Source of the DNA: Bacteroidales bacterium
GTDB taxonomy: Bacteria > Bacteroidota > Bacteroidia > Bacteroidales > WCHB1-69
Direction of reading: 5' to 3'
Assembly (NCBI GenBank): GCA_017613015.1
Contig: JAGAEQ010000062.1
Location: 874 to 64,873 of the forward strand
DNA: 64,000 bases
Below the pieces are notes generated by a model. It did not search any database. It was not told the origin of the DNA and saw nothing but the letters and a program-made list of their open reading frames with translations. Below are positions 22,630-53,367 of this stretch, piece after piece. How positions within the stretch are numbered: the stretch's first letter is position 1; each line of letters starts with the position of its first letter. A program made the position numbers and the translations under genes.

Positions 22630-22639
22630 AAAGACTTTC

Positions 22640-22666
22640 CGCCCGGAAAACGGGGCGCTTTTTTTT
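22640..22666 (+). terminator. terminator after tRNA-Arg
   Basis: Imperfect GC hairpin cgcccg-gaaaa-cggggcg followed by a run of eight t. Confidence 0.6.
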
Positions 22667-22734
22667 GAGGCAAGCCCGTGAGCCAAAATCCGAAAGAAAA
22701 AAACACAAGCTAAAAAAGGTATTAAAAAAATGTA

Positions 22735-22742
22735 TACTTTTG
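22735..22742 (+). promoter_or_regulatory. -7 promoter box TACTTTTG, candidate promoter of the 24-gene operon
   Basis: Matches TAnnTTTG, 134 nt upstream of the ATG at 22876, in an AT-rich leader. Confidence 0.4.
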
Positions 22743-22875
22743 TATTTTTTGACCTGGATACAGGTTGGAAGTGTTAAATGTGATAATCCCAAGGGGATAG
22801 ATATAGATAGTGATACATTGAGAGAGGTTGATTTTATGTTTTTTTCAGTTGGATTCCAAAGCGATAAAAGATGAT

Positions 22876-24393
22876 ATGAAAAAACTGAAATTTGAAGAGA
22901 TAGAAAACATTGTCTTTGGTGACACTCAATGGATTGTAGGAAGTGATGATTTACAGGGTGTTGAGGAATGCTATCTCTTTTTGAAGGAGTTTGCGTCGGA
23001 GAAAGTGATTTACGGCATCAATACGGGGTTTGGCCCCATGGCGCAGTGGCGCGTGGATGACAAACACTTGAGGGATTTGCAATATAATATCATCCGGAGC
23101 CACTCCACGGGTGCGGGTGAGGCATTGGACGATGTGTATGTGAAAGCCGCCATGATCGCACGGACAACCAATCTTTTGCAGTGTCGGTCGGGAGTGCATC
23201 CGTCGGTGGTGAAACTTCTTTTGGAGTTCATTAATCGCGGCATTTTCCCCTATATCCCCGAACATGGATCGGTGGGCGCGAGCGGCGATTTGGTGCAGTT
23301 GGCGCATATTGCCTTGACGCTCATTGGTGAGGGTAAGGTGCACTATAAGGGAGTGTGGCGTGCGAGTGCGGATGTGATGAAGGAATGTGGTATGGAACCG
23401 CTACAGATACATATTCGCGAAGGCCTTTCCATTACCAATGGCACCTCTGTGATGACTGGCATCTCGGCGGTAAACCAGCATTATGCCGAGCGGCTGTTAT
23501 GGCATGCCGTGTTGGCGAGTGTGTGGATGAATGAGATCGCGGGTTCTTATGACGATTGGATGGCAGAGGAGCTTAACGGGGTGCGTCGCCAACCGGGGCA
23601 GCAGGTTGTGGCGTCACGCATGCGCGAACTGGCTAAGGACAGCCGCTGTCTCATCAAACGCGAACACCACCTCTATAGCGAGGAGCAGAAAGGGAAGAAC
23701 TACTTTGAACACAAGGTGCAGGCCTACTATTCGCTGCGTTGCACCCCACAGATATTGGGACCCGTGTACGACACCCTGATGAATAGCCGCAGTGTGCTGG
23801 AAAACGAGTTCAATTCAGCCTGTGACAATCCTATTGTGGATCCCGTGAGCCGGAATGTCTATCACGGAGGAAACTTCCATGGCGACTACATCTCTCTGGA
23901 GGCCGATAAGGTGAAGATTGCCATAACGCGTCTGGCTATGACGATGGAACGTCAGCTGAATTACCTCTTCCACGACCGTATTAACGGTATATTGCCTCCG
24001 TTCCTGAACATGGGAGTCCTTGGTCTCAACTACGGCATGCAGGCATGTCAGTTCACTGCCACCAGCACCACGGCAGAGTGCCAGACCCTATCCATGCCGA
24101 ATTACGTGCACAGTATCCCGAACAACAATGACAATCAGGATATTGTAAGTATGGGCACAAATTCGTCCCTGCTTTGCAAACGGGTCATAGACAATGCTTA
24201 TCAGGTGCTGGCCATTCACATGATAGCGTTGGCGCAAGCCACCGACTGCCTGAAGAAGGCCGATGCGCTATGCGGCGCCTCCCGTCGGATGTACGAAAAG
24301 GTGCGTGGAATCATACCTCTTTTTGTGGAGGACACACCTTTCTACCAGGAGATTGCTGAGGTGGAGAACATGTTGAAAAAAGAGTGGGAATAA
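22876..24393 (+). CDS. aromatic amino-acid ammonia-lyase (HAL/PAL/TAL family), probable tyrosine ammonia-lyase
   Basis: The track start at 22828 is TTG; the first ATG is 22876 (MKKLKFEEIENIV). Motifs: NTGFGPMAQ, MIO tripeptide in GSVGASGDLVQLAH, YSLRCTPQILGP, NFHGDYISL, NQDIVSMG. Confidence 0.85.
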   Translation: MKKLKFEEIENIVFGDTQWIVGSDDLQGVEECYLFLKEFASEKVIYGINTGFGPMAQWRVDDKHLRDLQYNIIRSHSTGAGEALDDVYVKAAMIARTTNLLQCRSGVHPSVVKLLLEFINRGIFPYIPEHGSVGASGDLVQLAHIALTLIGEGKVHYKGVWRASADVMKECGMEPLQIHIREGLSITNGTSVMTGISAVNQHYAERLLWHAVLASVWMNEIAGSYDDWMAEELNGVRRQPGQQVVASRMRELAKDSRCLIKREHHLYSEEQKGKNYFEHKVQAYYSLRCTPQILGPVYDTLMNSRSVLENEFNSACDNPIVDPVSRNVYHGGNFHGDYISLEADKVKIAITRLAMTMERQLNYLFHDRINGILPPFLNMGVLGLNYGMQACQFTATSTTAECQTLSMPNYVHSIPNNNDNQDIVSMGTNSSLLCKRVIDNAYQVLAIHMIALAQATDCLKKADALCGASRRMYEKVRGIIPLFVEDTPFYQEIAEVENMLKKEWE

Positions 24394-24415
24394 GAACACA
24401 TAAAACATACGAACT

Positions 24416-25144
24416 ATGGAATACGCAATGATAACAGGCGCCTCTCGGGGTTTGGGAAGGGCGGTGGCATTGCGGCTGGCAGGCGAAGGAATGCCCGTGC
24501 TCATTAATTACCGGAGCAATGAAACTGCCGCAAAGGCCACGCTTGACGAGATTGTGTCAGCGGGAGGCAAGGGCGAACAGATCCCCTTTGATGTGGCTGA
24601 CAAGGGACAGGTGGAAGCCGCTATGGGGCAGTGGGAGTCCTCGCATCCAGATGATTATGTGTCTGTGCTGGTTAACAACGCTGGCATCAACCAGGACAAC
24701 GTGCTTACCTTTATGACAGATGAGGAGTGGCACAGCGTCCTCTCGACAACGCTTGACGGTTTCTTTTTCCTGACACGTCTGCTGGTGAAGCCGATGCTGC
24801 TGCATCGCTATGGGCGTATTGTCAATATGACTTCCCTTTCGGGTTTGAAAGGCCTGCCCGGGCAGGTGAACTATTCGGCAGCCAAGGCGGGTTTGATTGG
24901 CGCCACCAAGGCCTTGTCGCAGGAAGTGGCGCGGCGTAACATCACGGTCAATGCCGTGGCGCCGGGCTTTATCGAAACGGACATGACCCGGGATCTTCCT
25001 CAAAACGAACTGAAGTCCATGATACCGATGCGTCGCTTCGGCAAGCCGGAGGAGGTTGCCTCGCTGGTGGCGTTTCTGGTCTCAAAGGAGGCCTCCTACA
25101 TCACGGGGCAGGTGATTTCTGTCAATGGGGGACTGTATGCTTGA
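24416..25144 (+). CDS. 3-oxoacyl-ACP reductase (FabG/ApeQ-like ketoreductase)
   Basis: 242 aa SDR with ITGASRGLGRAVAL, NNAG, VNYSAAKAG and PGFIETDM. Confidence 0.85.
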   Translation: MEYAMITGASRGLGRAVALRLAGEGMPVLINYRSNETAAKATLDEIVSAGGKGEQIPFDVADKGQVEAAMGQWESSHPDDYVSVLVNNAGINQDNVLTFMTDEEWHSVLSTTLDGFFFLTRLLVKPMLLHRYGRIVNMTSLSGLKGLPGQVNYSAAKAGLIGATKALSQEVARRNITVNAVAPGFIETDMTRDLPQNELKSMIPMRRFGKPEEVASLVAFLVSKEASYITGQVISVNGGLYA

Positions 25145-25157
25145 AACTAAAGAGATT

Positions 25158-26381
25158 ATGAAAAATAGAAGAGTGGTTATAACGGGAGCGGGGATATGGT
25201 CATGCCTTGGCTCGTCAATGGACGAGGTCCGGCAGTCTCTCTATGAAGGAAAGTCGGGCATTGGGCTGGAGCCTGAGCGTCTGACTTACGGATACCAGTC
25301 CGCTTTGACCGGTATAGTGAAGAAACCCGTGCTCAAAGGGGTGCTTGAACGCCGACTGCGTGTTGGCATGTCGGAAGAGGCCGAATACGCCTACATGGCC
25401 AGCCGCGAAGCGCTGGCCATGGCCCGGATTAACGACACTTATCTTGACAACAACGAGATAGGTGTGCTGTTTGGCAACGATTCTTCAGCGAAAGCCGTGG
25501 TGGAGTCGTATCGGCTGATGGAGGAAAAGAAGGATTCGATGCTTTTGGGCTCAGGATGGATCTTCCAGTCAATGAACTCAACGGTGAATATGAACCTGAG
25601 TTCCATCTTCCGTTTCCGTGGCATCAATTTTACGGTGAGCGCAGCTTGTGCCAGCGGGTCGCACGCCGTGGGGCTCGGGATGATGTTTATTCGTCAGGGA
25701 TTGCAGGACATGGTGGTGTGTGGCGGCGCGCAAGAGGTGAACGCCTACAGCATGGCATCCTTCGACGCCTTGTCGGCATTTTCCAAACGCATGGATGAAC
25801 CAACCAAAGCTTCGCGACCTTTCGACCGCGACCGTGACGGGCTCATTCCGTCGGGAGGCGCTGCGGCATTGGTGCTGGAGGAGTATGAGCATGCGGTGGC
25901 CCGTGGCGCGAACATATTGGCGGAGGTGGCCGGTTACGGCTTTTCCTCCAATGGCAGCGGGATTTCCCAGGCGAGTGCCGATGGGTCGGAAATAGCCATG
26001 AGACGCGCTTTGCAGGATGCCGGCATTTCCGCAGACGAGGTTGATTACGTCAATGCCCACGCCACATCGACGCATGTGGGGGATAGCAATGAGGCCATCG
26101 CTCTCCATCGCATTTTCTCCGGCAAACGGGCGTTGGTGAGTTCCACAAAGTCAATGACCGGACATGAGTGCTGGATGGCAGGCGCAAGCGAAATGGTGTA
26201 TTCGCTGCTTATGATGCAGCACAATTTCGTGGCGCCCAACATCAATTTTGAGCATCCGGATGAGTACAGCGCCAAGTTGAATATTGCAGCCAGAACCGTT
26301 GACACGCAAGTGGACACGGTGCTGAGCAACAGCTTCGGTTTTGGCGGAACCAATTCGGCATTGGTGCTGAAGAAGTTATAA
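25158..26381 (+). CDS. beta-ketoacyl-ACP synthase (KAS I/II type), KS1
   Basis: ATG 25158 (MKNRRVVITGAGIWS). Active Cys in SAACASGSHAVG; His residues in NAHATSTHVGD and KSMTGHECWMAGA. C-terminus FGFGGTNSALVLKK. Confidence 0.9.
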   Translation: MKNRRVVITGAGIWSCLGSSMDEVRQSLYEGKSGIGLEPERLTYGYQSALTGIVKKPVLKGVLERRLRVGMSEEAEYAYMASREALAMARINDTYLDNNEIGVLFGNDSSAKAVVESYRLMEEKKDSMLLGSGWIFQSMNSTVNMNLSSIFRFRGINFTVSAACASGSHAVGLGMMFIRQGLQDMVVCGGAQEVNAYSMASFDALSAFSKRMDEPTKASRPFDRDRDGLIPSGGAAALVLEEYEHAVARGANILAEVAGYGFSSNGSGISQASADGSEIAMRRALQDAGISADEVDYVNAHATSTHVGDSNEAIALHRIFSGKRALVSSTKSMTGHECWMAGASEMVYSLLMMQHNFVAPNINFEHPDEYSAKLNIAARTVDTQVDTVLSNSFGFGGTNSALVLKKL

Positions 26382-26465
26382 TGACAGGTATGAAAGATGA
26401 ACTGAATACAATACAGAATCTTTTCGGATTGGTTTTCAGGAAATTGTCTATAAAAGAATAAACGT

Positions 26466-27563
26466 ATGCACCTTACTCCCGTATTAAAGGAAGCTTATTG
26501 CAAGGAGCGTCTCAGCGCTCGTGAGGCACAGGCCAAGGCGGAATGGATTGCCTGGGGGCCGGTGGTGTTTCAGGTGTGCCGTCTGATGAAGAAGTTTGGC
26601 GTCTTGGAGCTGTTGCGTAACAGCGATGATGGCATGACCGAGGCGGAGATAGCCGAGGCTACGGGCTTGAGCGGCTATGCCGTAAAGGTGATGCTGGAAG
26701 CCAGTCTCTGCATAGGTACTGTGCTCCTTGATCCCGAAAGTGACCGCTACAGTTTGAGCAAGACCGGGTGGTTTCTCATTACCGATCCCGCAACCAATGT
26801 GAACATGGACTTCAACCATGACGTGAACTACGAAGGTTGGTTCCATTTGGAGGAGAGCCTCAAAGAGGGGCGTCCCGCCGGTTTGGAGCATTTTGGCCCG
26901 TGGCCCACGGTCTATGAGGGCTTGTCGCAACTGCCGTCACAGGTTCAGAAAAGCTGGTTCGGCTTCGATCATTTTTACAGCGACAGTTCGTTCCGGCAGG
27001 CGTTGGAGATAGTCTTTGCCAATCATCCCCGTACGCTGCTTGATGTGGGCGGAAACACTGGCCGTTGGGCTTTACAGTGTGTGAAATATGACAGTGATGT
27101 GCGTGTGACCATCGTCGATCTGCCGCAGCAGCTGGAGATGATGCGACGTGATACCGCGGGTAAGACCGGTGCCGACCGTATTGACGGCTACGGCATGAAC
27201 TTGCTGGATCCGGCACAGGATTTCCCTGCCGACAAGCGTTATGACGCTATCTGGATGAGCCAGTTCCTGGACTGCTTCGGTGAGGATGAGATTGTTGGCA
27301 TTGTCAGCCGTGCGGCCAAGATTATGGATGAGGAGAGCCGCCTCTACATCATGGAGACTTTTTGGGACCGCCAGCGTTTTGAGCCGGCAGCCTTCTGCCT
27401 AACCATGACGAGCCTGTATTTCACCGCTATCGCCAACGGAAACAGCAAAATGTACCATTCGGAAGACATGGCGCGACTGGTGGGGAAAGCCCACCTGGAG
27501 GTGGAGACAATACATGACAACCTGGGACAGGGGCACAGTATCATGGTTTGCCGGAAAAAATGA
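26466..27563 (+). CDS. class I SAM-dependent methyltransferase (O-MT-type architecture with N-terminal wHTH/dimerisation region)
   Basis: 365 aa with SAM motif I LLDVGGNTGRWA. The N-terminal region (MTEAEIAEATGLSGYAVKVMLEA) looks like a winged helix. Confidence 0.8.
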   Translation: MHLTPVLKEAYCKERLSAREAQAKAEWIAWGPVVFQVCRLMKKFGVLELLRNSDDGMTEAEIAEATGLSGYAVKVMLEASLCIGTVLLDPESDRYSLSKTGWFLITDPATNVNMDFNHDVNYEGWFHLEESLKEGRPAGLEHFGPWPTVYEGLSQLPSQVQKSWFGFDHFYSDSSFRQALEIVFANHPRTLLDVGGNTGRWALQCVKYDSDVRVTIVDLPQQLEMMRRDTAGKTGADRIDGYGMNLLDPAQDFPADKRYDAIWMSQFLDCFGEDEIVGIVSRAAKIMDEESRLYIMETFWDRQRFEPAAFCLTMTSLYFTAIANGNSKMYHSEDMARLVGKAHLEVETIHDNLGQGHSIMVCRKK

Positions 27564-27618
27564 AGGTATAAAGGAAACATTACAAATAATAAAAGTAACT
27601 TAAAAACATAATAATAAA

Positions 27619-27870
27619 ATGACTCGTCAGGAAATAGAAGAACAGGTAAAGAAATTTATGGTCGAAGAGCTTGAACTCGAGGCTGCTAAAATTATTCCCG
27701 AGGCAAAACTAAAAGAAGATATAGGCGTTGACAGTCTTGATTTTGTGGATATAGTGGTGATTGTGGAGAAAGAGTTCGGTTTTAAGATTGTTCCAGAGGA
27801 AATGAAAGGCGTGGAAACCTTCGCTCAATTTTGCGATTATATAGAGCGCAAGCTTCAGCAAAAAGAATAG
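27619..27870 (+). CDS. acyl carrier protein (ACP1)
   Basis: 83 aa with phosphopantetheine site DIGVDSLDFVDIV. Confidence 0.85.
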   Translation: MTRQEIEEQVKKFMVEELELEAAKIIPEAKLKEDIGVDSLDFVDIVVIVEKEFGFKIVPEEMKGVETFAQFCDYIERKLQQKE

Positions 27871-27873
27871 GGG

Positions 27874-28719
27874 ATGGTGCAGCAGCAATGGTCGGGAAAA
27901 ACCGACGGGACAACATGGATGCAGCGTTCGCTGATAGCGATGCTCCGGATTATACCCTGCGAGGTGTTTTACGGGGTGCTATTGGTGGTGGTGCCGTTCT
28001 ACATGCTGTTCAGCCGCAAAAGCTATTGCGCCATTTATCGCTATTTTCGGCATCGTTTGGGCTATGGCCGCGTGAGGGCCTTCCTTAACGTATACTGGAA
28101 TCACTTTTTGTTCGGGCAGGTCGTCATTGACCGTTTCGCCGCTTTTGCCGGCAAACAGTACAAATTTGAGATAGACAATCTCCATCTTTTTGATGAGTTG
28201 GTTGCAGGAGAAGGGGGCTTCATCATGCTTAGCTCGCATGTGGGTTGTTACGAAATGGCAGGTTGCATGCTCACTTCGAAGAAGAAGCCCATCAACGCTG
28301 TCGCCTATGATGGGGAGACCGCCGTTGTCAGCCGTAACCGGGAGAGCCTGATGCTTCGACATAACATGAAACTGATACCCGTTAAGCGTGATATGAGTCA
28401 TCTTTTTGCCGTCAATTCCGCGCTTGACCGGGGCGAGATTGTCAGTCTGCCCGCAGACAGGCTCAACGGTTCCCCTAAAACGGTACGGTGTATGTTTATG
28501 GGGGAGGAGGCGCAGTTTCCCATGGGGCCTTTCTCGCTGGCACGCGTCAAGAAGGTGCCTGTGCTGGCCATGTTTGTCATGAAAGAGGGGTCGCGCCGCT
28601 ATCATATTTACCTCTCACGGGTGGAGAATGCACAACAGTTCGCCTGCGACATTGAGGCGACATTGCGTAAATATCCCGCCCAATGGTTTAATTTCTATGA
28701 TTTTTGGAATAAGGAATGA
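27874..28719 (+). CDS. LpxL/HtrB-family lysophospholipid acyltransferase (ApeD-like)
   Basis: 281 aa with an N-terminal TM segment and an HX4(D/E) box SSHVGCYE. The C-terminal YPAQWFNFYDFW is typical of the family. Confidence 0.75.
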   Translation: MVQQQWSGKTDGTTWMQRSLIAMLRIIPCEVFYGVLLVVVPFYMLFSRKSYCAIYRYFRHRLGYGRVRAFLNVYWNHFLFGQVVIDRFAAFAGKQYKFEIDNLHLFDELVAGEGGFIMLSSHVGCYEMAGCMLTSKKKPINAVAYDGETAVVSRNRESLMLRHNMKLIPVKRDMSHLFAVNSALDRGEIVSLPADRLNGSPKTVRCMFMGEEAQFPMGPFSLARVKKVPVLAMFVMKEGSRRYHIYLSRVENAQQFACDIEATLRKYPAQWFNFYDFWNKE

Positions 28720-29162
28720 AAAAGGAATTGGAAAACATCGATGTGCTGACACTTATCCCGCAACGTCCTCCTTTTGTGATGGTCGATCGGCTGATAGCGT
28801 TCGATTCGATGTCCGCCGTCACCGAGTTTGAAGTGCGGGAGGACAATCTTTTTGTCGATGACGGAAAGCTCTCTTTCGGAGGCGTGGTGGAGAATGTGGC
28901 GCAGTCGTGTGCCGCGCGTCTGGGCTATATCAATCACCAGTTGGACGAGCCTGTCAAGTTGGGGGTCATTGGGGCGGTAAAGAACTTTGAGGTTTCAAGG
29001 CTGCCTCTTGTGGGTGAAACCTTGACCACCCGCATTCTGGTGCGTGAAACGGTCTTCGCTATGATGTTGGTTTCTGCCACTGTCTGTGTCGGTGTCACGG
29101 AAATCGCACATGCCGACATGAAGATTGCCGTGACCGATACGGATGCAAGCACTAAAGCATAA
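28716..29162 (+). CDS. FabZ-like hot-dog protein lacking the catalytic His (DH1)
   Basis: 148 aa. LIPQRPPFVMVDRLI matches FabZ LPHRFPFLLVDRV. The FabZ GHFP position reads DDGK, while the Glu helix VENVAQS is retained. ATGA overlap with the upstream gene. Confidence 0.65.
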   Translation: MKKELENIDVLTLIPQRPPFVMVDRLIAFDSMSAVTEFEVREDNLFVDDGKLSFGGVVENVAQSCAARLGYINHQLDEPVKLGVIGAVKNFEVSRLPLVGETLTTRILVRETVFAMMLVSATVCVGVTEIAHADMKIAVTDTDASTKA

Positions 29163-29173
29163 GCATTGGATTT

Positions 29174-29608
29174 ATGATGAACAGCGAAAAAAACGGCAGC
29201 GCTTTGTGTGTGACGAAGAACATAGATATCCGCTTTAGCGAGGTGGATTCAATGAACGTTGTGTGGCACGGCAATTACCTGCTTTATTTCGAGGATGCCC
29301 GCGAGGCATTTGGCCAGAAGTACGGGCTGGACTACCTCACTATCTACCATAATGGCTACTATGCACCGCTGGTGGACATGAGTCTGCAATACAAGCGTCC
29401 CATTGTCTATGGCCAAAAAACTGTGATTAAGATTACCTATTGTCCTACGGATGCCGCCAAACTGGTGTTTGAGTATGAGATTTGGGACGAGGAGGGGGTG
29501 ACCCTGTTCGTCAAGGGACGGTCGGTACAGGTGTTTATGGACATGAATTATCAACTCATATGGACGAATCCGCCGTTTTTTGAGGAGTGGAAAAAGAAAT
29601 GGTTATAA
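29174..29608 (+). CDS. 4HBT/YbgC-type acyl thioesterase (ApeK-like)
   Basis: 144 aa hot-dog fold with IRFSEVDSMNVVWHGNYLLYFEDAR. Confidence 0.75.
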   Translation: MMNSEKNGSALCVTKNIDIRFSEVDSMNVVWHGNYLLYFEDAREAFGQKYGLDYLTIYHNGYYAPLVDMSLQYKRPIVYGQKTVIKITYCPTDAAKLVFEYEIWDEEGVTLFVKGRSVQVFMDMNYQLIWTNPPFFEEWKKKWL

Positions 29609-42507: not shown

Positions 42508-42520
42508 AGTCAGATGCAAT

Positions 42521-43813: not shown

Positions 43814-43832
43814 CTTTTCGAAAACAGATCCA

Positions 43833-44192: not shown

Positions 44193-45070
44193 AACGGACG
44201 CGAAGACTTTTGATGGTTTTTTACTGCTGTTTGCCCTTGGCGTTGGCCGCGCAGATGGTGTCCGTCCAGGGTGGCGGGGAACGCTATGCCTTGTGGGGGG
44301 ATTCTACAGGCTCCCATGTGCGGCAGGCCACAATCACACCTTTTCTGACCGATGTCACCTCCACGGCTGTCATCGTTTTTCCCGGCGGCAGCTATTTCTG
44401 GCTTGCCGGTAAAGAAGAGGGGGATGATGTGGGAAGCTGGCTTCAACAGCAAGGGCTTAACGCTTTTGTGGTGCGCTACCGTGTGCCGGGGTGGTGGAGC
44501 TGGTTTTCACACAACAGGCTCTTTGTTCGCGGCAAGCGCCATCCCGACATGTACGGCGACGGTCAGCAAGCGCTGCGTTGGGTTTTTGAACATGCTGCGC
44601 AATTCGGCATCGATACAAGCAAGGTGGGTATGATGGGATTCAGTGCGGGCGGCCATCTGGTGGCTTATCAGGCCTGCTGTGGCGATCCGTGGCGTCCCGC
44701 TTTTGCGGCATCCGTCTATCCGGTGGTTACCATGTCGGAACCTTGCGTGCACCAGCGTTCGCGTCGTGGATTGCTTGGAGAACGGTGGCGGCGCGAGGCC
44801 GACCTTTGCGACCAGCTTTCCGTTGAACGCCATGTGCCAGCCGACTGTCCGCCGATGTTTCTTGTCGCCTGTGATGACGACCCCGTTGTCAATCCCCGCA
44901 ACGCCCAACTTCTCGACAGCGCTTTGACGGTGCAGTCCATCCCGCATCGCTATATACGTTATCGCACCGGTGGCCACGGCTTTGGTGTCAGTGAAACAAA
45001 AGGGTCCTCCGAATCCCGCCAGTGGAAATATGCTTTCCTGGAGTGGCTCAAGGGGATGCATTATCTATAA
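44189..45070 (+). CDS. secreted alpha/beta hydrolase (esterase/lipase-like)
   Basis: 293 aa with signal peptide MKRTRRLLMVFYCCLPLALAAQ. Nucleophile elbow GFSAGGHL and C-terminal GGHGFG. Confidence 0.75.
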   Translation: MKRTRRLLMVFYCCLPLALAAQMVSVQGGGERYALWGDSTGSHVRQATITPFLTDVTSTAVIVFPGGSYFWLAGKEEGDDVGSWLQQQGLNAFVVRYRVPGWWSWFSHNRLFVRGKRHPDMYGDGQQALRWVFEHAAQFGIDTSKVGMMGFSAGGHLVAYQACCGDPWRPAFAASVYPVVTMSEPCVHQRSRRGLLGERWRREADLCDQLSVERHVPADCPPMFLVACDDDPVVNPRNAQLLDSALTVQSIPHRYIRYRTGGHGFGVSETKGSSESRQWKYAFLEWLKGMHYL

Positions 45071-45112
45071 TTCTGTCCGCATCGAATACTGTCGGTTCCA
45101 ATCATTTTTGTT

Positions 45113-46444: not shown

Positions 46445-46486
46445 AATAGAAAAGAAAAAAAAATAGAAACGTATCCGATATTTGTT

Positions 46487-46494
46487 TATTTTTG
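46487..46494 (+). promoter_or_regulatory. -7 box TATTTTTG in the only sizeable intergenic gap of the operon (internal promoter candidate)
   Basis: Matches TAnnTTTG inside the 148-nt gap 46445..46592, 99 nt upstream of the ACP3 ATG. Confidence 0.4.
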
Positions 46495-46592
46495 CGCTCA
46501 CGATTTGTAGTAACAGATAACTGATCCGGGACTTCGGAGGTTTTTGTCACAAGTGGGTTGAAAAGGTAACAGACAGAAGGCCCGTAAACAGA

Positions 46593-46856
46593 ATGGAAGA
46601 TTTAATTTTAACGTTAAAGCAGGAAATTATAGGAGTTTTGAACCTGGAAGAGGTTGGTCCTGAAGATATTGACGAAAATGCGCCGCTGTTTGGAGGTGAT
46701 TTGGGCTTGGACTCTATTGATGTGCTGGAATTGATTGCCTTGATGCAGAAAAAGTATAATATCAATATCACAGACCCTAACCAAGGTGAAAAAATTTTCA
46801 AGTCCGTCCGTTCAATGGCAGAATATATAGAACGGGAAACTGTTGAAAACAAATAA
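46593..46856 (+). CDS. acyl carrier protein (ACP3), paralog of ACP2
   Basis: 87 aa with DLGLDSIDVLELIALMQ. By hand alignment, about 50 of the first 79 positions are identical to ACP2. Confidence 0.85.
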   Translation: MEDLILTLKQEIIGVLNLEEVGPEDIDENAPLFGGDLGLDSIDVLELIALMQKKYNINITDPNQGEKIFKSVRSMAEYIERETVENK

Positions 46857-46937
46857 AGCAGACGATAGGGGCTTCTGTTTCCCGGAAAGGCGGACATGGG
46901 GGTTCCGGCAGAAAAATCGATAATTGTTGAATCCGTC

Positions 46938-47975
46938 ATGATTTCCGGCTATCCGAATGATAGGAAAAAGAATTGCGAGACAGGTGTTTTGGGCAACATG
47001 CTGGCGTGGCATGGGTATGAAATAAGCGAGGGGATGCTGTTCGGCATAGGTTCAGGTCTGTATTTCATGTATTCGCCGATTCTTGCCGTGTCGGGCACGA
47101 TTTACCCCTTGTTGAGACTTCCGCCTGTGGAGATTGTCAAAAGGGCGGCGGAAAGGCTGCATCTGAATGTGCGGGTCAAAAGTTTCGGCAACAACAGGGA
47201 CAGCGCCACCATCGCTCTTGAACGTCTCCTTGAAAAAAACATTCCTGTCGGGGTGGTTGTCAATGTGAAAGGTTTGCCCTATTTCAATGTGTCGGGTGTG
47301 GAGAGTGATTTTAATGGTCATATCGTGGCCGTCATAGGCAAAGAGGGCACTGACTATATCCTTGCGGACACAGACAGCAGGCTGTCTTCCGATGATTATG
47401 TCCGTGCCGGGGAGAGTATCATGCGTGAAATCCGTTTTGCTCCCGGCATAGCCGCTCCGCATGGCAAAATGTTTTGGCTGGACCCTTCGTCTGACTACGC
47501 TTCGCAATCCAAGTTCTTAAAGACCGCGGTGGTGTCCGGACTTAAAGAAACGTGCAATAAGTTTTTGCGGGTGCCGCTTCCCGGTTATGGCGTAAAAGGG
47601 CTGCATGCGTTTGCCAAAGACATCAGAAAATGGGAGGAGCGTTATTCCTTCAGGCAGATCGCGTATGTCCTGATGTGGTATTACCGGCTGATAGAAAGGG
47701 CCGGGACGGGAGGATCGGGATACCGGTATATATACCTTGATTTTTTGAAAGAGGCCGCTACGCTTTTTGAAAGCGATGTGCTGCAAGACAGTACGGATAC
47801 GATGGCCATGTCTGCGGAGCATTGGAGACTTTTCTGTCTCGAATGCCGGCGTTTCATAAGAAACCCTGAAAACACGTCGCTGAAAACAATGGCCGATATT
47901 ATGGATCAGATAGGAGCATATGAATGCGAGACATTTTACAGGATTAAAAAGGGTTTTGTCAGCCGTTGGGAATGA
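46938..47975 (+). CDS. BtrH_N/DUF4872-like protein (papain-like ACP-dependent acyltransferase family)
   Basis: ATG 46938 (an alternative ATG is at 46896). The N-terminal KKNCETGVLGNMLAWHGYEISEGMLFGIGSGLYFMY matches the BtrH N-terminal pattern as I recall it. The candidate Cys codon is at 46974..46976. Confidence 0.6.
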   Translation: MISGYPNDRKKNCETGVLGNMLAWHGYEISEGMLFGIGSGLYFMYSPILAVSGTIYPLLRLPPVEIVKRAAERLHLNVRVKSFGNNRDSATIALERLLEKNIPVGVVVNVKGLPYFNVSGVESDFNGHIVAVIGKEGTDYILADTDSRLSSDDYVRAGESIMREIRFAPGIAAPHGKMFWLDPSSDYASQSKFLKTAVVSGLKETCNKFLRVPLPGYGVKGLHAFAKDIRKWEERYSFRQIAYVLMWYYRLIERAGTGGSGYRYIYLDFLKEAATLFESDVLQDSTDTMAMSAEHWRLFCLECRRFIRNPENTSLKTMADIMDQIGAYECETFYRIKKGFVSRWE

Positions 47976-47988
47976 GCCCTGCGTCGAT

Positions 47989-49755
47989 ATGCCGCAGAGA
48001 ATATTTGATTTGCTGGCATATTACACCACGCATTACGGCCACAAAGACTGCCTGTTTGCCCACAAAGAAAAAGGCGTATGGGTTAAGTGCAGCGGCCAGT
48101 GGGTGATAGAGACAACGGATGCCGTCAGCATGGCGCTGATTCAAATGGGGGTGCAAAAAGGGGACAGGGTGGCCCTCATGATTGACAGCGGCCCCCAATG
48201 GAATGTGATAGACTTTGGCATACAGCAGCTTGGGGCGATTGTTGTACCGATACACCTGAATATAGGGCGGGACGGTTTGGCGCATATTCTTTCCCATTGT
48301 CATCCCAAAGCCATTTTTGTCAGGGATGGGAGTTTGATCCGTCATACACTGGACATCATTCGCCCGATCATCCCCCAAGACAGGATCATTTCCATGGCCC
48401 CTGCCGAAGATTTTCTCCCATTCGACACTTTCCTCCGTACAGGCCAAAACAGGCCTGATTTGCGGGAGGCGTTGGAAAAGGCGGAAGGGGAGGTCTTGCC
48501 GGATGATACGGCGTCCATTATTTACACCTCCGGCACATCCGGTGTGCCCAAGGGGGTGATGCTAAGCCATGGCAACATCATGAGCAATATCGCCCATTAT
48601 GTGAACGATGTGCCCCGTATTGACCGGAGTGTCAGCCATCTTCCTTTATCGCATATTTTTGAGCGTTCCGTACAATACGCCCGCATTTATTGCGGCATTG
48701 AAATCTGTTACGCCGAAAGCAAGGCAAGCATTGTTCGGGATGTTATAGAGTTGAAAGCCAATAGTTTTTCTACGGTTCCAAGGGTCTTGGAACGGATGTA
48801 TGACTATGTCGTGCAAAAGGGGGAGACGCTGAAGGGTGTCAAAAAAAGGCTGTTCCAATGGGCCGTCAGGCTTGCGGACAATTTTGATGAAACCGGAAAG
48901 CACAGCAATGCCCTGTATCGTTGTAAAATGGCCCTGGCCGACCATTGGGTGTACAAAGACATCCGGGAAATGTTTGGAGGTAATCTGGTGTTTATAAATT
49001 CCGGAGGGGCTTTGCTTCATCCGCATCTTGTCAAGTTTTTCACGGCTATAGGGATCCCTGTCGGAATAGGATACGGCCTGACGGAGACTTCCCCGACGAT
49101 AAGCAGCACCAGGCTGACCCAGGGACTGGTAAAGGCCGGTGCCGTGGGGCATCCGTGTCGCAACTTGGATGTGAAAATAGATGAAGCGACCAACGAGATA
49201 CTGGTCAAGGGGCCTTCTGTGATGAAGGGCTATTTCATGGACGAGGAGAAAACGCGATTGGCGTTTGACGAAGAAGGCTACTTTCATACCGGAGACAAAG
49301 GATGGATAGACAGCGATGGCTTTTTGTTTTTAACCGGGCGCATAAAGGATATTTTTAAGACCTCCATGGGAAAATACATCGTTCCGGAGGCGATAGAGAA
49401 CAAATTATGCGAATCGGCATATATAAGCAACGCCATGGTGACAGGAGAGGGACAGCGGTTTGCGGCAGCACTTGTTGTTCCTGATTTCCAGCAGCTTAAA
49501 TTGTGGTGCCGCCAACAAGGAATCACTTTTTGCAGCGTGGAAGAGATGTTGGGGGACAAAAGAGTGCAAAAACTTATTGAAGACGACGTTTCCGCCTGTA
49601 ACAACACCTTGGGAAGCACGGAACGGGTGCAACGGATCAGGCTGCTTGACCATGAATGGACCGTGGAAAGCGGAGAATTGACACCCAGCTTCAAAATCCG
49701 CCGCAATGTGATTCAGGAGAACAATAAGGAATTGATCAAGTCCCTTTTTGACTGA
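47989..49755 (+). CDS. long-chain acyl-CoA/AMP ligase (ACSL type), paralog of the 10854..12629 gene
   Basis: ATG 47989 (MPQRIFDLLAYY). Motifs: IIYTSGTSGVPKGVML, GYGLTETS, YFHTGDKG, GRIKDIFKTSMGKYIVP. Confidence 0.85.
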   Translation: MPQRIFDLLAYYTTHYGHKDCLFAHKEKGVWVKCSGQWVIETTDAVSMALIQMGVQKGDRVALMIDSGPQWNVIDFGIQQLGAIVVPIHLNIGRDGLAHILSHCHPKAIFVRDGSLIRHTLDIIRPIIPQDRIISMAPAEDFLPFDTFLRTGQNRPDLREALEKAEGEVLPDDTASIIYTSGTSGVPKGVMLSHGNIMSNIAHYVNDVPRIDRSVSHLPLSHIFERSVQYARIYCGIEICYAESKASIVRDVIELKANSFSTVPRVLERMYDYVVQKGETLKGVKKRLFQWAVRLADNFDETGKHSNALYRCKMALADHWVYKDIREMFGGNLVFINSGGALLHPHLVKFFTAIGIPVGIGYGLTETSPTISSTRLTQGLVKAGAVGHPCRNLDVKIDEATNEILVKGPSVMKGYFMDEEKTRLAFDEEGYFHTGDKGWIDSDGFLFLTGRIKDIFKTSMGKYIVPEAIENKLCESAYISNAMVTGEGQRFAAALVVPDFQQLKLWCRQQGITFCSVEEMLGDKRVQKLIEDDVSACNNTLGSTERVQRIRLLDHEWTVESGELTPSFKIRRNVIQENNKELIKSLFD

Positions 49756-49757
49756 TA

Positions 49758-51017
49758 CTAAATTTTCTTTTTTGCCACAATGGATACGGCGGTGCAGGCG
49801 ACTGTCAGTGCAAGGAGCAACAGGCAGTTGGGTAGGACAGACCTTATGCCCCCGTCCCTTAAAATGACATTATAGAAGGCTTCAATGCCCCAATTTAAAG
49901 GGGAAAGCACACTGACCGCCTTTAAAAAAGGAGGCATTAGAAAGGTCGGCACCCAAATTCCACCAACGGCAGACAGCACCACTACCGTCACTGCTCCCAA
50001 CACGGAAGCCTGTTGGTGCGTTGAGGCAAATGTTCCAAGCGTCAGTCCTATGCCGATGGCCGCCAGGGCACAGAAAAAGACGATCATCAGGCAAAGGGCG
50101 AATGCCCCGTGCATGCTGAAGACGGGCAGTCCCACCAAAGGGAACAAGAGTTTCCCCATCATCATGACAAGCAAAAACTGTAGCACGCACACGCATTCAT
50201 ATACGACAATTTTACTCATAAGATAGGTGGAATAGGGACAGGTCATCGCCATCAGGCGGGAGAAGCTTCCATCCTGACGTTCTTTGATAATGCCTCCGGA
50301 AAGCGATATCACGATAAAGAAAATGGCGAACAGTGTCCATGCCGGCACATTATGCTCTGTAACATTTATATTGGTCCTGAAAGCGTCTTTGGAATACGCG
50401 ATTTCGTCTATACTGATGGGTTTTAAGTCTGGTGGCGGCGCCATGCTGTCGGTCGGGAAGGGGGAGAATTCCTGCGCTGTCTCCGAAATGGTGGAGAGCA
50501 GCGCTTTTTTTTCGATATGGTTTGACGCTTCGCGAAGATAGCACATCATTGTGGTGCGGAAAGTGTTGTTTACGGTAGGGTCGATAAAAACTTTTAAAGA
50601 GGACAGAGTGTCCGTCTGAGGGGTGGAGCCTAATCCCAACATTTCGGACAGGCTCGACTCGATTTCATTGCGCACCATAGACGAGATGTTCTCGGGAATA
50701 TACACTCCGATGAGAAAAGAGCCTTCCTTGACAGCCTGTTGCACCTCTGATGCGGTTTGGGTGGAATCTGCCAGCGTGACATCAAACAAATCCTGTCGTT
50801 GCAGTTCGCTGATTATTTCCCGGCCCATCTCATCCCTGTCCTTGTCAAGAATCAGAACGGAGACTGTTTTTTTGGATGAATTTTCGACAGCTCCGTCCTG
50901 TATGCCGGTCATGACCAGCACCAGTACCATGGGCATGGCGAAAAGAAACAGCAAGCCGGCTTTGTCCCGGACAAGCAGCAGCAAATCTTTATAAAGCAAT
51001 GCGGCAAATTTTCTCAT
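49758..51017 (-). CDS. ABC-2-type transporter permease
   Basis: 419 aa with an N-terminal TM, a ~170-aa extracytoplasmic region and five C-terminal TMs. Its stop is 2 nt from the convergent ligase stop. Confidence 0.75.
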   Translation of the reverse strand: MRKFAALLYKDLLLLVRDKAGLLFLFAMPMVLVLVMTGIQDGAVENSSKKTVSVLILDKDRDEMGREIISELQRQDLFDVTLADSTQTASEVQQAVKEGSFLIGVYIPENISSMVRNEIESSLSEMLGLGSTPQTDTLSSLKVFIDPTVNNTFRTTMMCYLREASNHIEKKALLSTISETAQEFSPFPTDSMAPPPDLKPISIDEIAYSKDAFRTNINVTEHNVPAWTLFAIFFIVISLSGGIIKERQDGSFSRLMAMTCPYSTYLMSKIVVYECVCVLQFLLVMMMGKLLFPLVGLPVFSMHGAFALCLMIVFFCALAAIGIGLTLGTFASTHQQASVLGAVTVVVLSAVGGIWVPTFLMPPFLKAVSVLSPLNWGIEAFYNVILRDGGIRSVLPNCLLLLALTVACTAVSIVAKKKI

Positions 51018-51021
51018 AGGT

Positions 51022-51780
51022 TCAATCCTCCATCGTTCGAAGTTCTTTTCCTGTCAGCTCAAGATACACCGATTTTAGGTCATGGCATTCGGGGAATCGT
51101 CGGGCAAGCGCTTCGGGGCTGTCCGCGGCCACCAGTTTTCCGCCGTCAATAATGCCCACCCGGGTGCATAAATGTTCCGCCTCTTCCATGTCGTGCGAGG
51201 TGTAGAGAATGGTCGTCCCATGGCTGTTAAGTGTTTTCAAATACTCCAAAATGACTACTTTTGACTGCACGTCAATTCCTACGGTTGGTTCGTCAAGAAT
51301 CAGCAAGTCAGGGTTGTGCAATATTCCGACCATCAGGTTTAAACTTCGCTTCATGCCTCCGGAAAAAGAAGCCGCTTTTTTGTCACGGAATTTTTCAAGA
51401 CCAAAAAGATCCAGCAGCTTTCCAATGCGGTTAGTCAATTCCGGACGGGAGATTCCGTATACCGAACCGAAAACCGACAGGTTCTCATAGGCGGTCAGTT
51501 CGGGGTAGATGGCTATGCTTTGCGGCACGAACCCCACCCTCCGCATGGTGTTTTTTCTGTCGGATGCGACAGGTTTGCCGAATATTTCAATGTTTCCGGA
51601 ATCTTGTTTCAAAAGTCCGGCAAGAATGTTGACAGTGGTCGTTTTTCCGGCCCCGTTGGGGCCGAGAAACCCATAAATCTCGCCTTGTCCAATGGTGAGG
51701 TCAAGTCCGGTAAGGACTTCTTTGTTGCCATTAGGATAGGTTTTCCTGAGTTTTTCTATACGCAGTATGGTTGTTGCCAT
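51022..51780 (-). CDS. ABC transporter ATP-binding protein
   Basis: Walker A GPNGAGKTT, signature FSGGMKRSL, Walker B LLILDEPT, H-loop YTSHDM. Confidence 0.9.
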   Translation of the reverse strand: MATTILRIEKLRKTYPNGNKEVLTGLDLTIGQGEIYGFLGPNGAGKTTTVNILAGLLKQDSGNIEIFGKPVASDRKNTMRRVGFVPQSIAIYPELTAYENLSVFGSVYGISRPELTNRIGKLLDLFGLEKFRDKKAASFSGGMKRSLNLMVGILHNPDLLILDEPTVGIDVQSKVVILEYLKTLNSHGTTILYTSHDMEEAEHLCTRVGIIDGGKLVAADSPEALARRFPECHDLKSVYLELTGKELRTMED

Positions 51781-51784
51781 TTTC

Positions 51785-53200
51785 TTAGAAGTTTCCGTCG
51801 TTGGTTATTGTTCCGAGCAGCGTGTCGATTTCTTTCATTTCTTTAGGCTTGAAGAGGCGTAATGTCCAATAGTGGATGTTGTGCGCTAAGGAGAGAAGGA
51901 AACTCCCTATAAACCGGGATATTGCCGCTCCCAGCAGCTGAATCGCCACGGCGGCAAGGCCCCACCATGCGCCTATGGCGATAATCCGGTTCATCCACAG
52001 GCCTTCCCCAAAGGTGATGGCAAGTCCGATGGCGATGCAATAGGCTATTGAGCCTAAGTAACGCAGGATAAAGTTGAAGGAGTTTTTGAATTGGGGGTCG
52101 ATGCGCATTTTTTTGAAGATGAGATGGGTGGGGATCAGTGGAAAGGGGTAGCACAGCAAGCAGAAGAGCAGGGGCCTGCCGATGGCAGGAAAGAGCGCCG
52201 CCAGGGTGACAACTACGGCAAGGCTTAGCGAAAGTCCAAACGTGGCGGGGAGGCTGAGACGCTCCGAAGGAAACTGGACATCTATGTTCAATTTCCGGCA
52301 CAGCTTTTCATACTGTTGCACACAGGGAAGGATTCTTTCGAATTTGTCAGCTGCTGTTGTCTCCATCAAGTCCAGTTGGCGTGCGATTTTTTGCCGCGTC
52401 ACAAAACAATTCCAGGCTGTTTTTCCCAAACCCTCCCCGCTTCTCCTTTTTTTGTTTAAAATGTTACAAAGGGTGTAAATCTCTTCGTAGTGCCCCTTGC
52501 TGTGTATATCAAGCATTAAAGAGCTTAGCCTTTCCGAGAGGGTGTCTCGCATCTTGTTGAGAGCCAACGCTTCATCTTCGGCATAAACCTTCATGAAAGA
52601 CGGTACGGCCATCGGGGTGCCAATGTTCACCACCAAATTGCCGTAGGGCTGTTCGTAGGTGTCGTAGTCAATGCCGACAGGCACAATGAAAAGCGGTTTG
52701 TCATGAAGGGCTTGCTGTGTTATGCAGGCGATGCGGAACATCCCTTTGCCAAGCGGCAGTAATTGGTGGCGGTTGTTGTGCCGTCCTTCGGCCATAAGGC
52801 ACAGCGGCGTCCCGTCCAGTAACGCTTGTCGGCAAAGGTTGAAAATGTGGAAATTTTGGGAAAGTTTTCCCATGCCGTCACGAGTGCGGTAGATGGGCAG
52901 AATTCTGAGAAAAGAGTGGGTTTTAAGCACTGCCTTTTTGGAAAAGATGTCGGCACGTGTCAGAAAAACAGGCGGTTTGGGTGCGACAGGGAGCATCACA
53001 AACGCATCCATAAGGGTCTGTTGGTGGCATGGTGCCAGCATATAAGGGGCTTCCCGGGGAATGTTTTCTGTGCCGTGGATGTGAAAACACCGGTAATGGC
53101 AGCGGATGCCGAACTTGAAAACCGGCATGAAAAGCGTATAAAGAAAATTACTGCGCTGAACTTTCAGCGTGTCATCCGTATCGTGTTTCAGCCGTTGCAT
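51785..53200 (-). CDS. PlsC/GPAT-family acyltransferase with C-terminal multi-TM domain
   Basis: ATG at 53200 (the track start at 53203 is TTG). HX4D box APCHQQTLMD and second box LMAEGRHN. The C-terminal ~170 aa has 4-5 hydrophobic helices. Confidence 0.7.
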   Translation of the reverse strand: MQRLKHDTDDTLKVQRSNFLYTLFMPVFKFGIRCHYRCFHIHGTENIPREAPYMLAPCHQQTLMDAFVMLPVAPKPPVFLTRADIFSKKAVLKTHSFLRILPIYRTRDGMGKLSQNFHIFNLCRQALLDGTPLCLMAEGRHNNRHQLLPLGKGMFRIACITQQALHDKPLFIVPVGIDYDTYEQPYGNLVVNIGTPMAVPSFMKVYAEDEALALNKMRDTLSERLSSLMLDIHSKGHYEEIYTLCNILNKKRRSGEGLGKTAWNCFVTRQKIARQLDLMETTAADKFERILPCVQQYEKLCRKLNIDVQFPSERLSLPATFGLSLSLAVVVTLAALFPAIGRPLLFCLLCYPFPLIPTHLIFKKMRIDPQFKNSFNFILRYLGSIAYCIAIGLAITFGEGLWMNRIIAIGAWWGLAAVAIQLLGAAISRFIGSFLLSLAHNIHYWTLRLFKPKEMKEIDTLLGTITNDGNF

Positions 53201-53290
53201 CAAACAAAAACCAAAAATGTTTAAGTTGTCTTTTTAACTAAAGTTTCACCACTTTTCCGGACCTTGGGAATATCCAAAGGTCCAAATATA

Positions 53291-53298
53291 CAAAAGTA
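53291..53298 (-). promoter_or_regulatory. -7 box (TACTTTTG on - strand) for the acyltransferase/ABC operon
   Basis: Forward caaaagta. A second candidate, TATATTTG, is at 53283..53290. They lie 80-90 nt upstream of the ATG at 53200. Confidence 0.4.
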
Positions 53299-53367
53299 GT
53301 ACAAAAAAAGACATGGGCTGTTCTGTGGGTGAAAAAAAAGTCCGCTTGTCCGTATATGAAAAATCAT

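Follow-up and report, generated by a model that had tools for sequence, protein, structure and literature searches.

A probable flexirubin-lineage aryl-polyene lipid cluster beside tRNA-Arg(CCT) in an uncultured member of the Bacteroidales

We analyzed a 64,000-nt stretch of DNA (here called the window; positions 874 to 64,873 of contig JAGAEQ010000062.1, assembly GCA_017613015.1) from a Bacteroidales bacterium of the WCHB1-69 lineage, and describe a block of 27 genes (22876-53200, ~30 kb) that resembles the clusters for aryl polyenes and flexirubins. Among Gram-negative bacteria, no biosynthetic cluster family is regarded as more widespread than that of the aryl polyenes. A preliminary description of this DNA had recognized 24 codirectional plus-strand genes (22876..49755) and a convergent three-gene operon (49758..53200), a layout that both the open reading frames and the gene calls of the source contig reproduce. 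The block proteins were searched with Pfam and NCBIfam models, using the NCBIfam equivalog cutoffs, and every domain listed in that description was recovered, with weak matches for the dehydratases. The window is 99.98 to 99.995% identical to a 117-kb metagenome scaffold in the European Nucleotide Archive (ENA), XIEF21-1_SAMN15830094_METAG-scaffold_288, from a sample that, judging by the study code, is presumably of ruminant gut origin. A few single-nucleotide polymorphisms and one 99-nt tandem tRNA-Asn copy differ between them, which suggests two independent assemblies of one arrangement with the same junctions. Our reading covered ~75 kb of this contig, the block included. For flank and cluster proteins alike, the nearest relatives that have a name come from uncultured Bacteroidales, and the flank genes (type IX secretion system [T9SS], GldH, 2-oxoacid:ferredoxin oxidoreductase) are consistent with an anaerobic Bacteroidota host. 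Related loci are cited by label: cluster carriers are L009 (metagenome-assembled genome [MAG] CALEMB010000007), L016/L017, L018/L019 (L018 is Parabacteroides sp. OttesenSCG-928-N08, GCA_030265565.1 contig JAJDGG010000004.1), L020, L021, and L022, and relatives of the flanks are L010, L013, and L027 to L030.

The left border is tRNA-Arg(CCT) (22555..22629, plus strand; ARAGORN and Rfam), with a terminator-like hairpin directly after it, past which an AT-rich promoter region begins. The end of the tRNA gene (22629) is separated from the start of flxA (22876) by 246 nt and not the ~100 nt first given, which places the block directly beside the tRNA gene. The first genes, all on the plus strand, code for the tyrosine ammonia-lyase FlxA (22876..24393; NCBIfam FlxA_rubin_TAL NF053541, 827 bits, cutoff 700; Pfam Lyase_aromatic), with the MIO motif ASG at residue 151, the SDR ketoreductase FlxB (24416..25144; FlxB_rubin_SDR, 389 bits, cutoff 340; YxxxK motif), and the ketosynthase (KS) FlxC (25218..26381), which has the Pfam ketoacyl-synt N and C domains, an active-site Cys (AACASG), and 64% identity to a KS of the Aureispira flexirubin core. 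Next come a FlxJ-family methyltransferase, the type assigned to aryl-ring C methylation (26466..27563; FlxJ_fam_MTase, 604 bits, cutoff 560), the FlxD-like acyl carrier protein (ACP) ACP1 (27619..27870; Pfam PP-binding, DSL serine motif), and the LpxL-type acyltransferase FlxE (27874..28719; Pfam Lip_A_acyltrans, HX4E motif). The hot-dog dehydratase FlxF (28716..29162) is identified as ApeP-like by a precomputed Pfam match on the identical contig gene and is 35% identical to its Aureispira counterpart; our own hmmscan of this 148-aa protein, unlike the precomputed annotation, gave no family even at an E value of ≤0.1, a discrepancy that may come from the Pfam version or filters. It is followed by the 4HBT thioesterase FlxH (29174..29608; Pfam 4HBT_2 and 4HBT).

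Two fused condensing proteins lie further on, and the two domains that resemble chain length factors (CLFs) are their C-terminal parts. The 584-aa FlxI-FlxL fusion (29599..31353; Pfam KS) joins a KS with an active-site Cys (NACISG) to a condensing-enzyme-like C-terminal domain and aligns over two adjacent genes of the Aureispira core, and the 752-aa FlxN-FlxO fusion (31610..33868; Pfam KS domains, Ketoacyl-synt_2) joins a KS to a CLF domain and aligns over the KS and the annotated CLF of that core. The FlxM-like ACP2 (31353..31610; Pfam PP-binding) lies between them. The active-site Cys is thus kept in all three ketosynthases (AACASG, NACISG, and TACSSA). The left half continues with a small EamA-like membrane protein of 118 aa (33877..34233; weak Pfam EamA match), which has homologs of 117 to 118 aa at the same position in L018, L020, L021, and L022; the periplasmic lipid carrier LolA2 (34253..34852; NCBIfam LolA2_flexi, 139 bits, cutoff 125); the hot-dog dehydratase FlxS (34870..35229; weak Pfam ApeI-like [E = 1.9e-4] and FabA matches), whose homologs in L016 and L020 carry ApeI-like; and the GT2 glycosyltransferase FlxT (35226..35987; Pfam Glycos_transf_2). 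The next protein, FlxU (35990..39478; Pfam MMPL and Acyltransferase), is an MMPL/RND-type exporter fused to a PlsC-type acyltransferase with an HX4D motif at residue 904.

The right half opens with a 1,010-aa protein of two fused CrtI/FlxV-like FAD oxidoreductase domains (39475..42507; Pfam Amino_oxidase and NAD_binding_8, each twice; two GxGxxG motifs). This fusion of the two CrtI-like genes sets the block apart from other Bacteroidales clusters; they form a separate pair in L020, only one of them occurs in L009 and in L018, and L016 has one joined to FlxU. The next gene codes for a radical S-adenosylmethionine (SAM) enzyme with a B12-binding-like domain (42521..43813), with CX3CX2C at residue 176 and weak Pfam Radical_SAM and B12-binding matches. 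It has 6,188 homologs at an E value of ≤1e-10, and the best 120 of these 6,188 each share at least 77% identity with it (77 to 91%); they belong to a Parabacteroides genome and to MAGs that bear the names Bacteroidaceae, Prevotellaceae, and Tannerella. The neighboring FlxU is just 38 to 55% identical in the same loci, and the constraint on the radical SAM protein appears to be unusually strong for a tailoring enzyme. Its sequence matches in the PDB are marginal (E = 0.01 to AprD4), and the AlphaFold model (pLDDT, 63) has its best fold matches with AprD4, MgmA, TsrM, and CysS at TM scores of 0.3 to 0.4. The predicted fold places the protein only broadly, among the radical SAM enzymes with a B12-binding domain. 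Directly after it, a 119-aa protein is encoded (43833..44192) that has no match in Pfam, NCBIfam, or the PDB; homologs of 99 to 123 aa occupy the same place directly after the radical SAM gene in L016, L018, and L020. At the Rfam thresholds only two tRNAs pass, and no RNA element was found in the block, such as a cobalamin riboswitch near the radical SAM gene.

The plus-strand genes end with an alpha/beta-hydrolase, or esterase (44213..45070; Pfam BD-FAE and Abhydrolase_3, GFSAG motif), the 4-coumarate-CoA ligase FlxY (45113..46444; NCBIfam FlxY_rubin NF053551, 696 bits, cutoff 520), the DarC-like ACP3 (46593..46856; Pfam PP-binding), a DarH-like acyltransferase of the BtrH family (46938..47975; Pfam BtrH_N and DUF4872; NCBIfam DarH_acyl, 225 bits, under the cutoff of 300), and a FadD-like acyl-AMP/CoA ligase (47989..49755; Pfam AMP-binding), with a 59% identical homolog at the same position in L009. 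The convergent operon, on the minus strand, consists of a DarJ-like ABC-2 permease (49758..51017; Pfam ABC2_membrane_3), a DarI-like ABC ATPase (51022..51780; Pfam ABC_tran, Walker A motif), and the 471-aa PlsC-family acyltransferase AT472 (51785..53200; Pfam Acyltransferase), which has a variant HX5D motif (CHQQTLMD) instead of HX4D and a homolog of 52% identity in L009. The catalytic motifs checked in all three KS and in FlxA, FlxB, FlxU, the ACPs, the flavoproteins, the radical SAM enzyme, the esterase, and the ABC ATPase are preserved.

The first reading of the locus as an aryl-polyene/flexirubin cluster was borne out, with FlxA, FlxB, FlxJ, LolA2, and FlxY exceeding the NCBIfam flexirubin equivalog cutoffs. 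The gene order follows flxA to flxY of Chitinophaga pinensis (table S4 of PMC3992019), except that flxJ stands earlier, with flxC before it and the first ACP gene after it, and the block also carries counterparts of darC, darH, darI, and darJ of the dar subcluster. What it has in common with the flexirubin clusters of C. pinensis and Flavobacterium johnsoniae (Fjoh_1074-1110) is a tyrosine-derived starter via FlxA and FlxY, a core order of FlxA-FlxB-FlxC, ACP, LpxL acyltransferase, dehydratase, thioesterase, KS, ACP, KS, and CLF, and then LolA, dehydratase, GT2, the FlxU exporter/acyltransferase, the FlxV-like flavoprotein, and FlxY. For the C. pinensis enzymes, the activities of FlxA (tyrosine to 4-coumarate) and FlxY (to 4-coumaroyl-CoA) have been demonstrated (PMC3992019). 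Compared with the C. pinensis reference, the block is without DarA, DarB, FlxW (peptidase C45), FlxK (halogenase), FlxP (deacetylase), FlxX (phosphopantetheinyl transferase [PPTase]), FlxG, and DarD to DarG, while it has in addition the second CrtI-like domain, the B12-type radical SAM enzyme, the 119-aa protein, the esterase, the FadD-like ligase, and the 471-aa PlsC acyltransferase. FlxI/FlxL and FlxN/FlxO are fused, unlike in the flexirubin clusters, and the host belongs to an anaerobic gut lineage.

A defining difference concerns the dialkylresorcinol half of flexirubins. None of the 27 block genes matches DarA or DarB (StlD/DarB) in NCBIfam, and Pfam found among them no domain of the FlxW type (peptidase C45/Ntn hydrolase), the enzyme proposed to join polyene and resorcinol. 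There is no DarB in the rest of the ~75 kb read; the sole KAS III, ~12 kb to the right of the block, was considered for this role and is an ordinary FabH (330 bits, cutoff 249), scoring 44 bits with the DarB model NF053539 (cutoff 550). The eight cluster loci of related Bacteroidales that we looked at showed neither darA nor darB. By its gene content, the block appears to be flexirubin-like and not a canonical flexirubin cluster, because the defining dialkylresorcinol genes darA and darB are missing from it.

The proteobacterial aryl-polyene (APE) lipid systems of Escherichia coli CFT073 and Xenorhabdus doucetiae (apeA-R) have in common with the block the type II KS/CLF, at least two ACPs, ApeI/ApeP-type dehydratases, a ketoreductase, a methyltransferase, a thioesterase, an LpxL-like acyltransferase, a glycosyltransferase, a LolA-like carrier, and an MMPL/RND exporter. 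Domain-level equivalents of the whole core of Grammbitter et al. (KS ApeO/R, CLF ApeC, ACPs ApeE/F, dehydratases ApeI/P, ketoreductase ApeQ, and transporter ApeM) are found in the block, and the two would share the logic of an outer-membrane lipid pigment. The starter of the APE lipids is 4-hydroxybenzoate, supplied by an adenylating enzyme with no ammonia-lyase, whereas the block has FlxA and FlxY, and its starter is therefore predicted to be coumarate. The Pfam scans of the block gave no match to the LolB-like ApeN (DUF3261), and ApeG (COG4648) was not scanned for. At full length, the proteobacterial lipid consists of APE-GalNAc-phosphate-glycerol bearing two more acyl chains; it is assembled by the acyltransferase ApeD and the glycosyl/acyltransferase ApeJ and exported by the transporter ApeM and a LolA-like protein; in X. 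doucetiae the pathway was postulated from product structures and gene deletions (bioRxiv 10.1101/2020.12.19.423268).

The region 39475..53200 had been described as lacking a counterpart in the E. coli ape gene set. The radical SAM, CrtI-like, BtrH-like, and ABC components of the block are not part of the ape set as described (bioRxiv 10.1101/2020.12.19.423268). Much of the region matches characterized flexirubin clusters, given that the C. pinensis and F. johnsoniae tables list the ACP, FlxY, the FlxV-like flavoprotein, the ABC pair, and the BtrH-like DarH. Its other genes are found again in uncharacterized Bacteroidales clusters. The region is thus only in part a set of canonical flexirubin components; the rest is routine for an uncharacterized Bacteroidales subtype, because the same layout recurs in many uncultured Bacteroidales and in the Parabacteroides genome.

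This subtype is common in host-associated Bacteroidales, and it is chemically uncharacterized. The radical SAM gene stands between a CrtI-like gene and a small protein gene in every sampled context (L016/L017, L018/L019, and L020), FlxY lies downstream of the small protein with the esterase intervening in L016/L017 and L020, and a PlsC-like acyltransferase comes after FlxY in the full-length loci L016 to L018 and L020. Upstream of the radical SAM gene, the sampled loci have KS, CLF, EamA-like, LolA, dehydratase, GT2, and FlxU genes. The uncharacterized clusters, such as that of Parabacteroides L018, have the same order from KS/CLF to the PlsC-like acyltransferase, with radical SAM proteins 80 to 88% identical to that of the block. 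FlxA has thousands of relatives at 72 to 86% identity, and L021 and L022 have an identical left half from FlxA to LolA (FlxA, 83 to 86% identity). The module of ACP3, the DarH-like protein, the FadD-like ligase, the ABC pair, and AT472 was otherwise found only in L009, where an extra PlsC acyltransferase and a glycerol-3-phosphate dehydrogenase adjoin the cluster, and a scan of species-representative genomes with the DarH-like protein returned one locus only. Aryl polyenes are the second most frequent class of biosynthetic gene clusters in 8,160 rumen genomes (2,800/14,814), and rumen Prevotella encode them (PMC8241843); antiSMASH surveys have counted such clusters in rumen Prevotella and Bacteroidaceae. 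Our literature search combining aryl polyene, Bacteroidales, and radical SAM found no paper.

Plasmid carriage of the subtype was considered and not retained, as the closest plasmid matches of the radical SAM protein are 28 to 31% identical and in unrelated contexts, and plasmid matches of FlxA reach at most 52%. The Aureispira core cited above is on the 122-kb plasmid pAUEa of Aureispira anguillae (L026, NZ_AP026868.1, 98.5 to 112.5 kb), adjoining a ParA gene, and codes for PPTase, FlxA, FabG, KS, ACP, acyltransferase, dehydratase, thioesterase, KS pair, ACP, KS, CLF, deacetylase, and LolA, among others; such clusters can therefore sit on extrachromosomal replicons.

The block differs from its flanks in composition. 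Five spot GC values in the preliminary description are exact, though they are a poor sample of the block, and the lower GC content that it claimed holds, with a small difference in bulk (0.513 in the block versus 0.547 to the left and 0.569 to the right) and the main signal at third codon positions (GC3). The GC3 value is 0.590 ± 0.071 in 25 block genes versus 0.732 ± 0.038 in 36 flank genes (Mann-Whitney P = 1.3e-10), with ranges that barely overlap (0.39 to 0.67 and 0.64 to 0.82). The steps fall within one intergenic region on each side, from 0.735 (GH3) to 0.628 (FlxA) on the left and from 0.612 (AT472) to 0.816 (DUF4159) on the right. The tetranucleotide distance to the flanks is 0.22 to 0.29 inside the block and 0.11 to 0.17 outside, so the profile is not flat across the borders, and codon usage in the block favors TAT, AAT, CAT, TTT, and TGT while the host favors C-ending codons. 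The cluster in the relatives follows no single pattern. GC3 equals that of the flanks in L018 and L020; in L016 it is above the flanks and falls from 0.79 to 0.50 along the cluster (330-11738). Low GC3 is thus not a general property of the cluster, because L018 and L020 show no dip and L016 has the reverse sign. The ACP-DarH-FadD-AT472-ABC module of L009 (9733-16320) has a GC3 of 0.39 to 0.46, versus 0.58 to 0.65 for most of the rest, and the CrtI-like gene there has 0.46. These patterns point to mosaic exchange.

The relatives compared here do not carry the block at the same locus, and synteny with them breaks at both borders. L027 to L030 keep tRNA-Asn, Obg (89 to 91% identity), an SDR (80%), T9SS, GH3 (70%), and tRNA-Arg(CCT), and past this tRNA they continue with a 1,234-aa histidine kinase, DUF4954, peptidase M23, Usp, and TsaB, with no flx gene. 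On the other side, L013 (Der, 93%; DUF4159, 87%) keeps DUF4159-S4-Der, with a T9SS protein, transketolase, and LptFG upstream and no cluster, and L010 is similar. The left neighbors differ across three carriers, being tRNA-Arg/GH3 in the window and GH25/RNase G and phosphoglucomutase in L021 and L022. L021 also has a phage-type integrase (2586-3596) and a tRNA-Arg(CCG) (5749-5823), 6.4 kb and 4.2 kb upstream of flxA, with Rce1-like, HU, RNase G, and GH25 genes between these and flxA.

Both operons are preceded by a 21-nt promoter motif. One copy, TACTTTTGTATTTTTTGACCT (22735..22755, plus strand), is 121 to 141 nt upstream of flxA and contains a TAnnTTTG box; the other, TACTTTTGTATATTTGGACCT (53278..53298, minus strand), is 78 to 98 nt upstream of AT472, the first gene of the convergent operon. 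They form an inverted pair with 19/21 matches, have the same orientation relative to each operon, and are the sole two copies in the window, with none in shuffled sequences. TAnnTTTG is the Bacteroidetes -7 box consensus. The shared element suggests that the two operons are coregulated. We rejected the pair as terminal inverted repeats of a transposon, given that it sits in both promoter regions, in the same orientation to its operon, and with a -7 box. The motif was not found upstream of flxA in L021 and L022. A sigma-70-type scan of 45 to 54.5 kb, a model that does not cover Bacteroidetes promoters, gave 14 promoter-like sites versus 9.0 ± 3.3 in shuffled sequence and 17 terminator-like sites versus 11.1 ± 3.9, both near expectation and uninformative.

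Several neighbors of the block have features of their own. The gene to the left (19655-22459) codes for a 934-aa fusion of a GH3 glycosidase (NagZ-like) and a class C beta-lactamase-fold domain, conserved at 35 to 71% identity in 80 metagenome loci. The tRNA-Asn(GTT) gene has one copy in the window (10604-10678) and two tandem copies (99-nt unit) in the ENA scaffold (L005, 11590-11790), and two are also present in L029; the difference is probably an assembly collapse or strain variation. Downstream of it, an AAA_14/DUF4143 ATPase gene (12940-14205) has a GC3 of 0.66, the second lowest of the flank genes after GldH (0.64), and may be another small foreign insert. Just to the right of the window lies a second lipid cluster on the same contig (L006, 1-9096; ~64.5 to 74 kb in window-equivalent coordinates), similar to type II fatty acid synthases (FAS) and with host-like GC3, which codes for a geranylgeranyl-reductase-family flavoprotein, FabH, FabF, a hot-dog dehydratase, FabG, an ACP, electron transfer flavoprotein beta and alpha, a 561-aa acyl-CoA dehydrogenase, and a radical SAM protein.

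Taken together, the block is likely an aryl-polyene lipid cluster from the flexirubin lineage, complete and to all appearances undamaged, that sits as a compositionally foreign insert between tRNA-Arg(CCT) and DUF4159-S4-Der and with a product that is not a resorcinol ester. According to the orthology of the C. pinensis enzymes, as supported by the model cutoffs, FlxA would deaminate tyrosine to 4-coumarate, and FlxY would convert it to 4-coumaroyl-CoA. Domain content and the Xenorhabdus Ape pathway suggest that this starter is extended on the ACPs by FlxC, the fused FlxI-L, and the fused FlxN-CLF, with reduction by FlxB and dehydration by FlxF and FlxS; there is no enoyl reductase, and the chain should therefore be a conjugated polyene. 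FlxJ would methylate the aryl ring, and the two CrtI-like domains, the B12-type radical SAM enzyme, and its 119-aa partner may tailor the chain. Polyene and fatty acyl chain could be attached to a lipid head by FlxH, FlxE, the PlsC domain of FlxU, GT2, and the esterase, and the set of FadD-like ligase, ACP3, DarH-like protein, and AT472 may also serve this attachment and acylation. By analogy with the proteobacterial APE lipids, the anchor would be a glyco-phospho-glycerolipid and not a dialkylresorcinol, and the MMPL domain of FlxU, LolA2, and the ABC-2 pump could carry the product to the outer membrane. Most likely, then, the product is an aryl-polyene lipid that is primed with tyrosine and then exported to the outer membrane.

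Several points weigh against this picture of a foreign cluster with a nonresorcinol product. Pathway and product are read from the genes, the roles of the radical SAM enzyme, flavoproteins, esterase, FadD-like ligase, and AT472 are guesses, and the dehydratase assignments of FlxF and FlxS depend on weak or precomputed Pfam matches. As for its arrival, the preliminary description was right that there is no integrase or transposase (none among the 27 block genes, and no integrase or recombinase in the immediate flanks) and no duplicated tRNA 3' end (a single match to the 25-nt end with up to 3 mismatches allowed), and with no flanking direct repeats either, att sites were discarded. The tRNA-Arg(CCT) side and the DUF4159 side do not adjoin in the relatives, and there is no clean empty site because the two flanks are not next to each other there. 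No donor can be named, because the nearest sampled clusters are only 45 to 87% identical per protein. Finally, the clusters of L021 and L022 have a GC3 of 0.70 versus ~0.79 in their housekeeping neighbors, a milder dip of the same sign, and part of the GC3 shift could therefore be intrinsic.

Three other explanations were considered. Vertical inheritance, with low GC3 reflecting weak codon selection on rarely expressed genes and with neighbors that differ by ordinary rearrangement, would fit the lack of mobility genes and att sites, the very wide distribution of the cluster in the Bacteroidales, the dip in L021/L022, and the divergence of the nearest clusters. We nevertheless consider it unlikely, given the GC3 gap of 0.14 with almost no overlap and with edges within one intergenic region per side, the GC3 of 0.65 to 0.74 in other host genes of presumably low expression, including the second FAS-like cluster, the lack of a dip in L018/L020 and its reversal in L016, and the fact that both borders are synteny breakpoints. 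An assembly chimera joining DNA of two organisms is suggested by the abrupt composition change at both ends of a region from a metagenome assembly; as both flanks have the same composition, both junctions are in the seemingly independent scaffold_288, and the index has two contigs of 50 to 200 kb with these genes, we find it barely credible. On composition and synteny, it is more likely than not that horizontal transfer or relocation brought the block to where it now lies. Regarding the product, the polyene could be esterified, as in canonical flexirubins, to a dialkylresorcinol from darA/darB elsewhere in the genome; in C. pinensis the flx and dar genes are at two separate loci (PMC3992019), our reading covers ~75 kb of the 117-kb contig, and the block has counterparts of darC, darH, darI, and darJ in ACP3, the DarH-like protein, and the ABC pair. 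The lack of DarA/DarB in the block, of DarB in the ~75 kb, and of both in the eight related loci, together with FlxW not being among the block genes and a DarH-like protein below its cutoff, makes this improbable in our view.

The block, then, is not a new kind of system but an ordinary secondary-metabolite island, and general concepts are unchanged by it. As a complete and cleanly bounded example of the Bacteroidales subtype, its 27 genes can be defined as one unit because the boundaries are set by both composition and synteny, and this separates the genes common to flexirubin clusters (FlxA, B, C, E, F, H, I-L, J, N-O, Q, S, T, U, V, and Y, and the DarC/H/I/J-like genes) from those specific to the subtype (the radical SAM enzyme, its 119-aa partner, the esterase, the second flavoprotein, the FadD-like ligase, and the extra acyltransferase). 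The resulting gene list is a practical start for heterologous expression or for knockouts in a cultured Parabacteroides or Prevotella carrier, and it includes, in the radical SAM enzyme, a candidate catalyst of a new radical SAM reaction with a polyene lipid as substrate. To our knowledge, full-length aryl-polyene products are known only for aerobic flexirubin producers and one Xenorhabdus strain. A bolder and rather doubtful possibility is that anaerobic host-associated Bacteroidales make an undescribed class of tyrosine-primed, non-dialkylresorcinol aryl-polyene lipids, in which the unusually conserved B12-type radical SAM enzyme (~80% identical across the Bacteroidaceae, Prevotellaceae, Tannerella, and Parabacteroides of the match list) and its dedicated ~120-aa partner modify the polyene or aryl part. 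If this were true, the radical SAM step would be oxygen independent and without counterpart in the studied flexirubin, xanthomonadin, or APE pathways, and gut and rumen lineages would exchange the cluster as a mosaic whose submodules are interchangeable.

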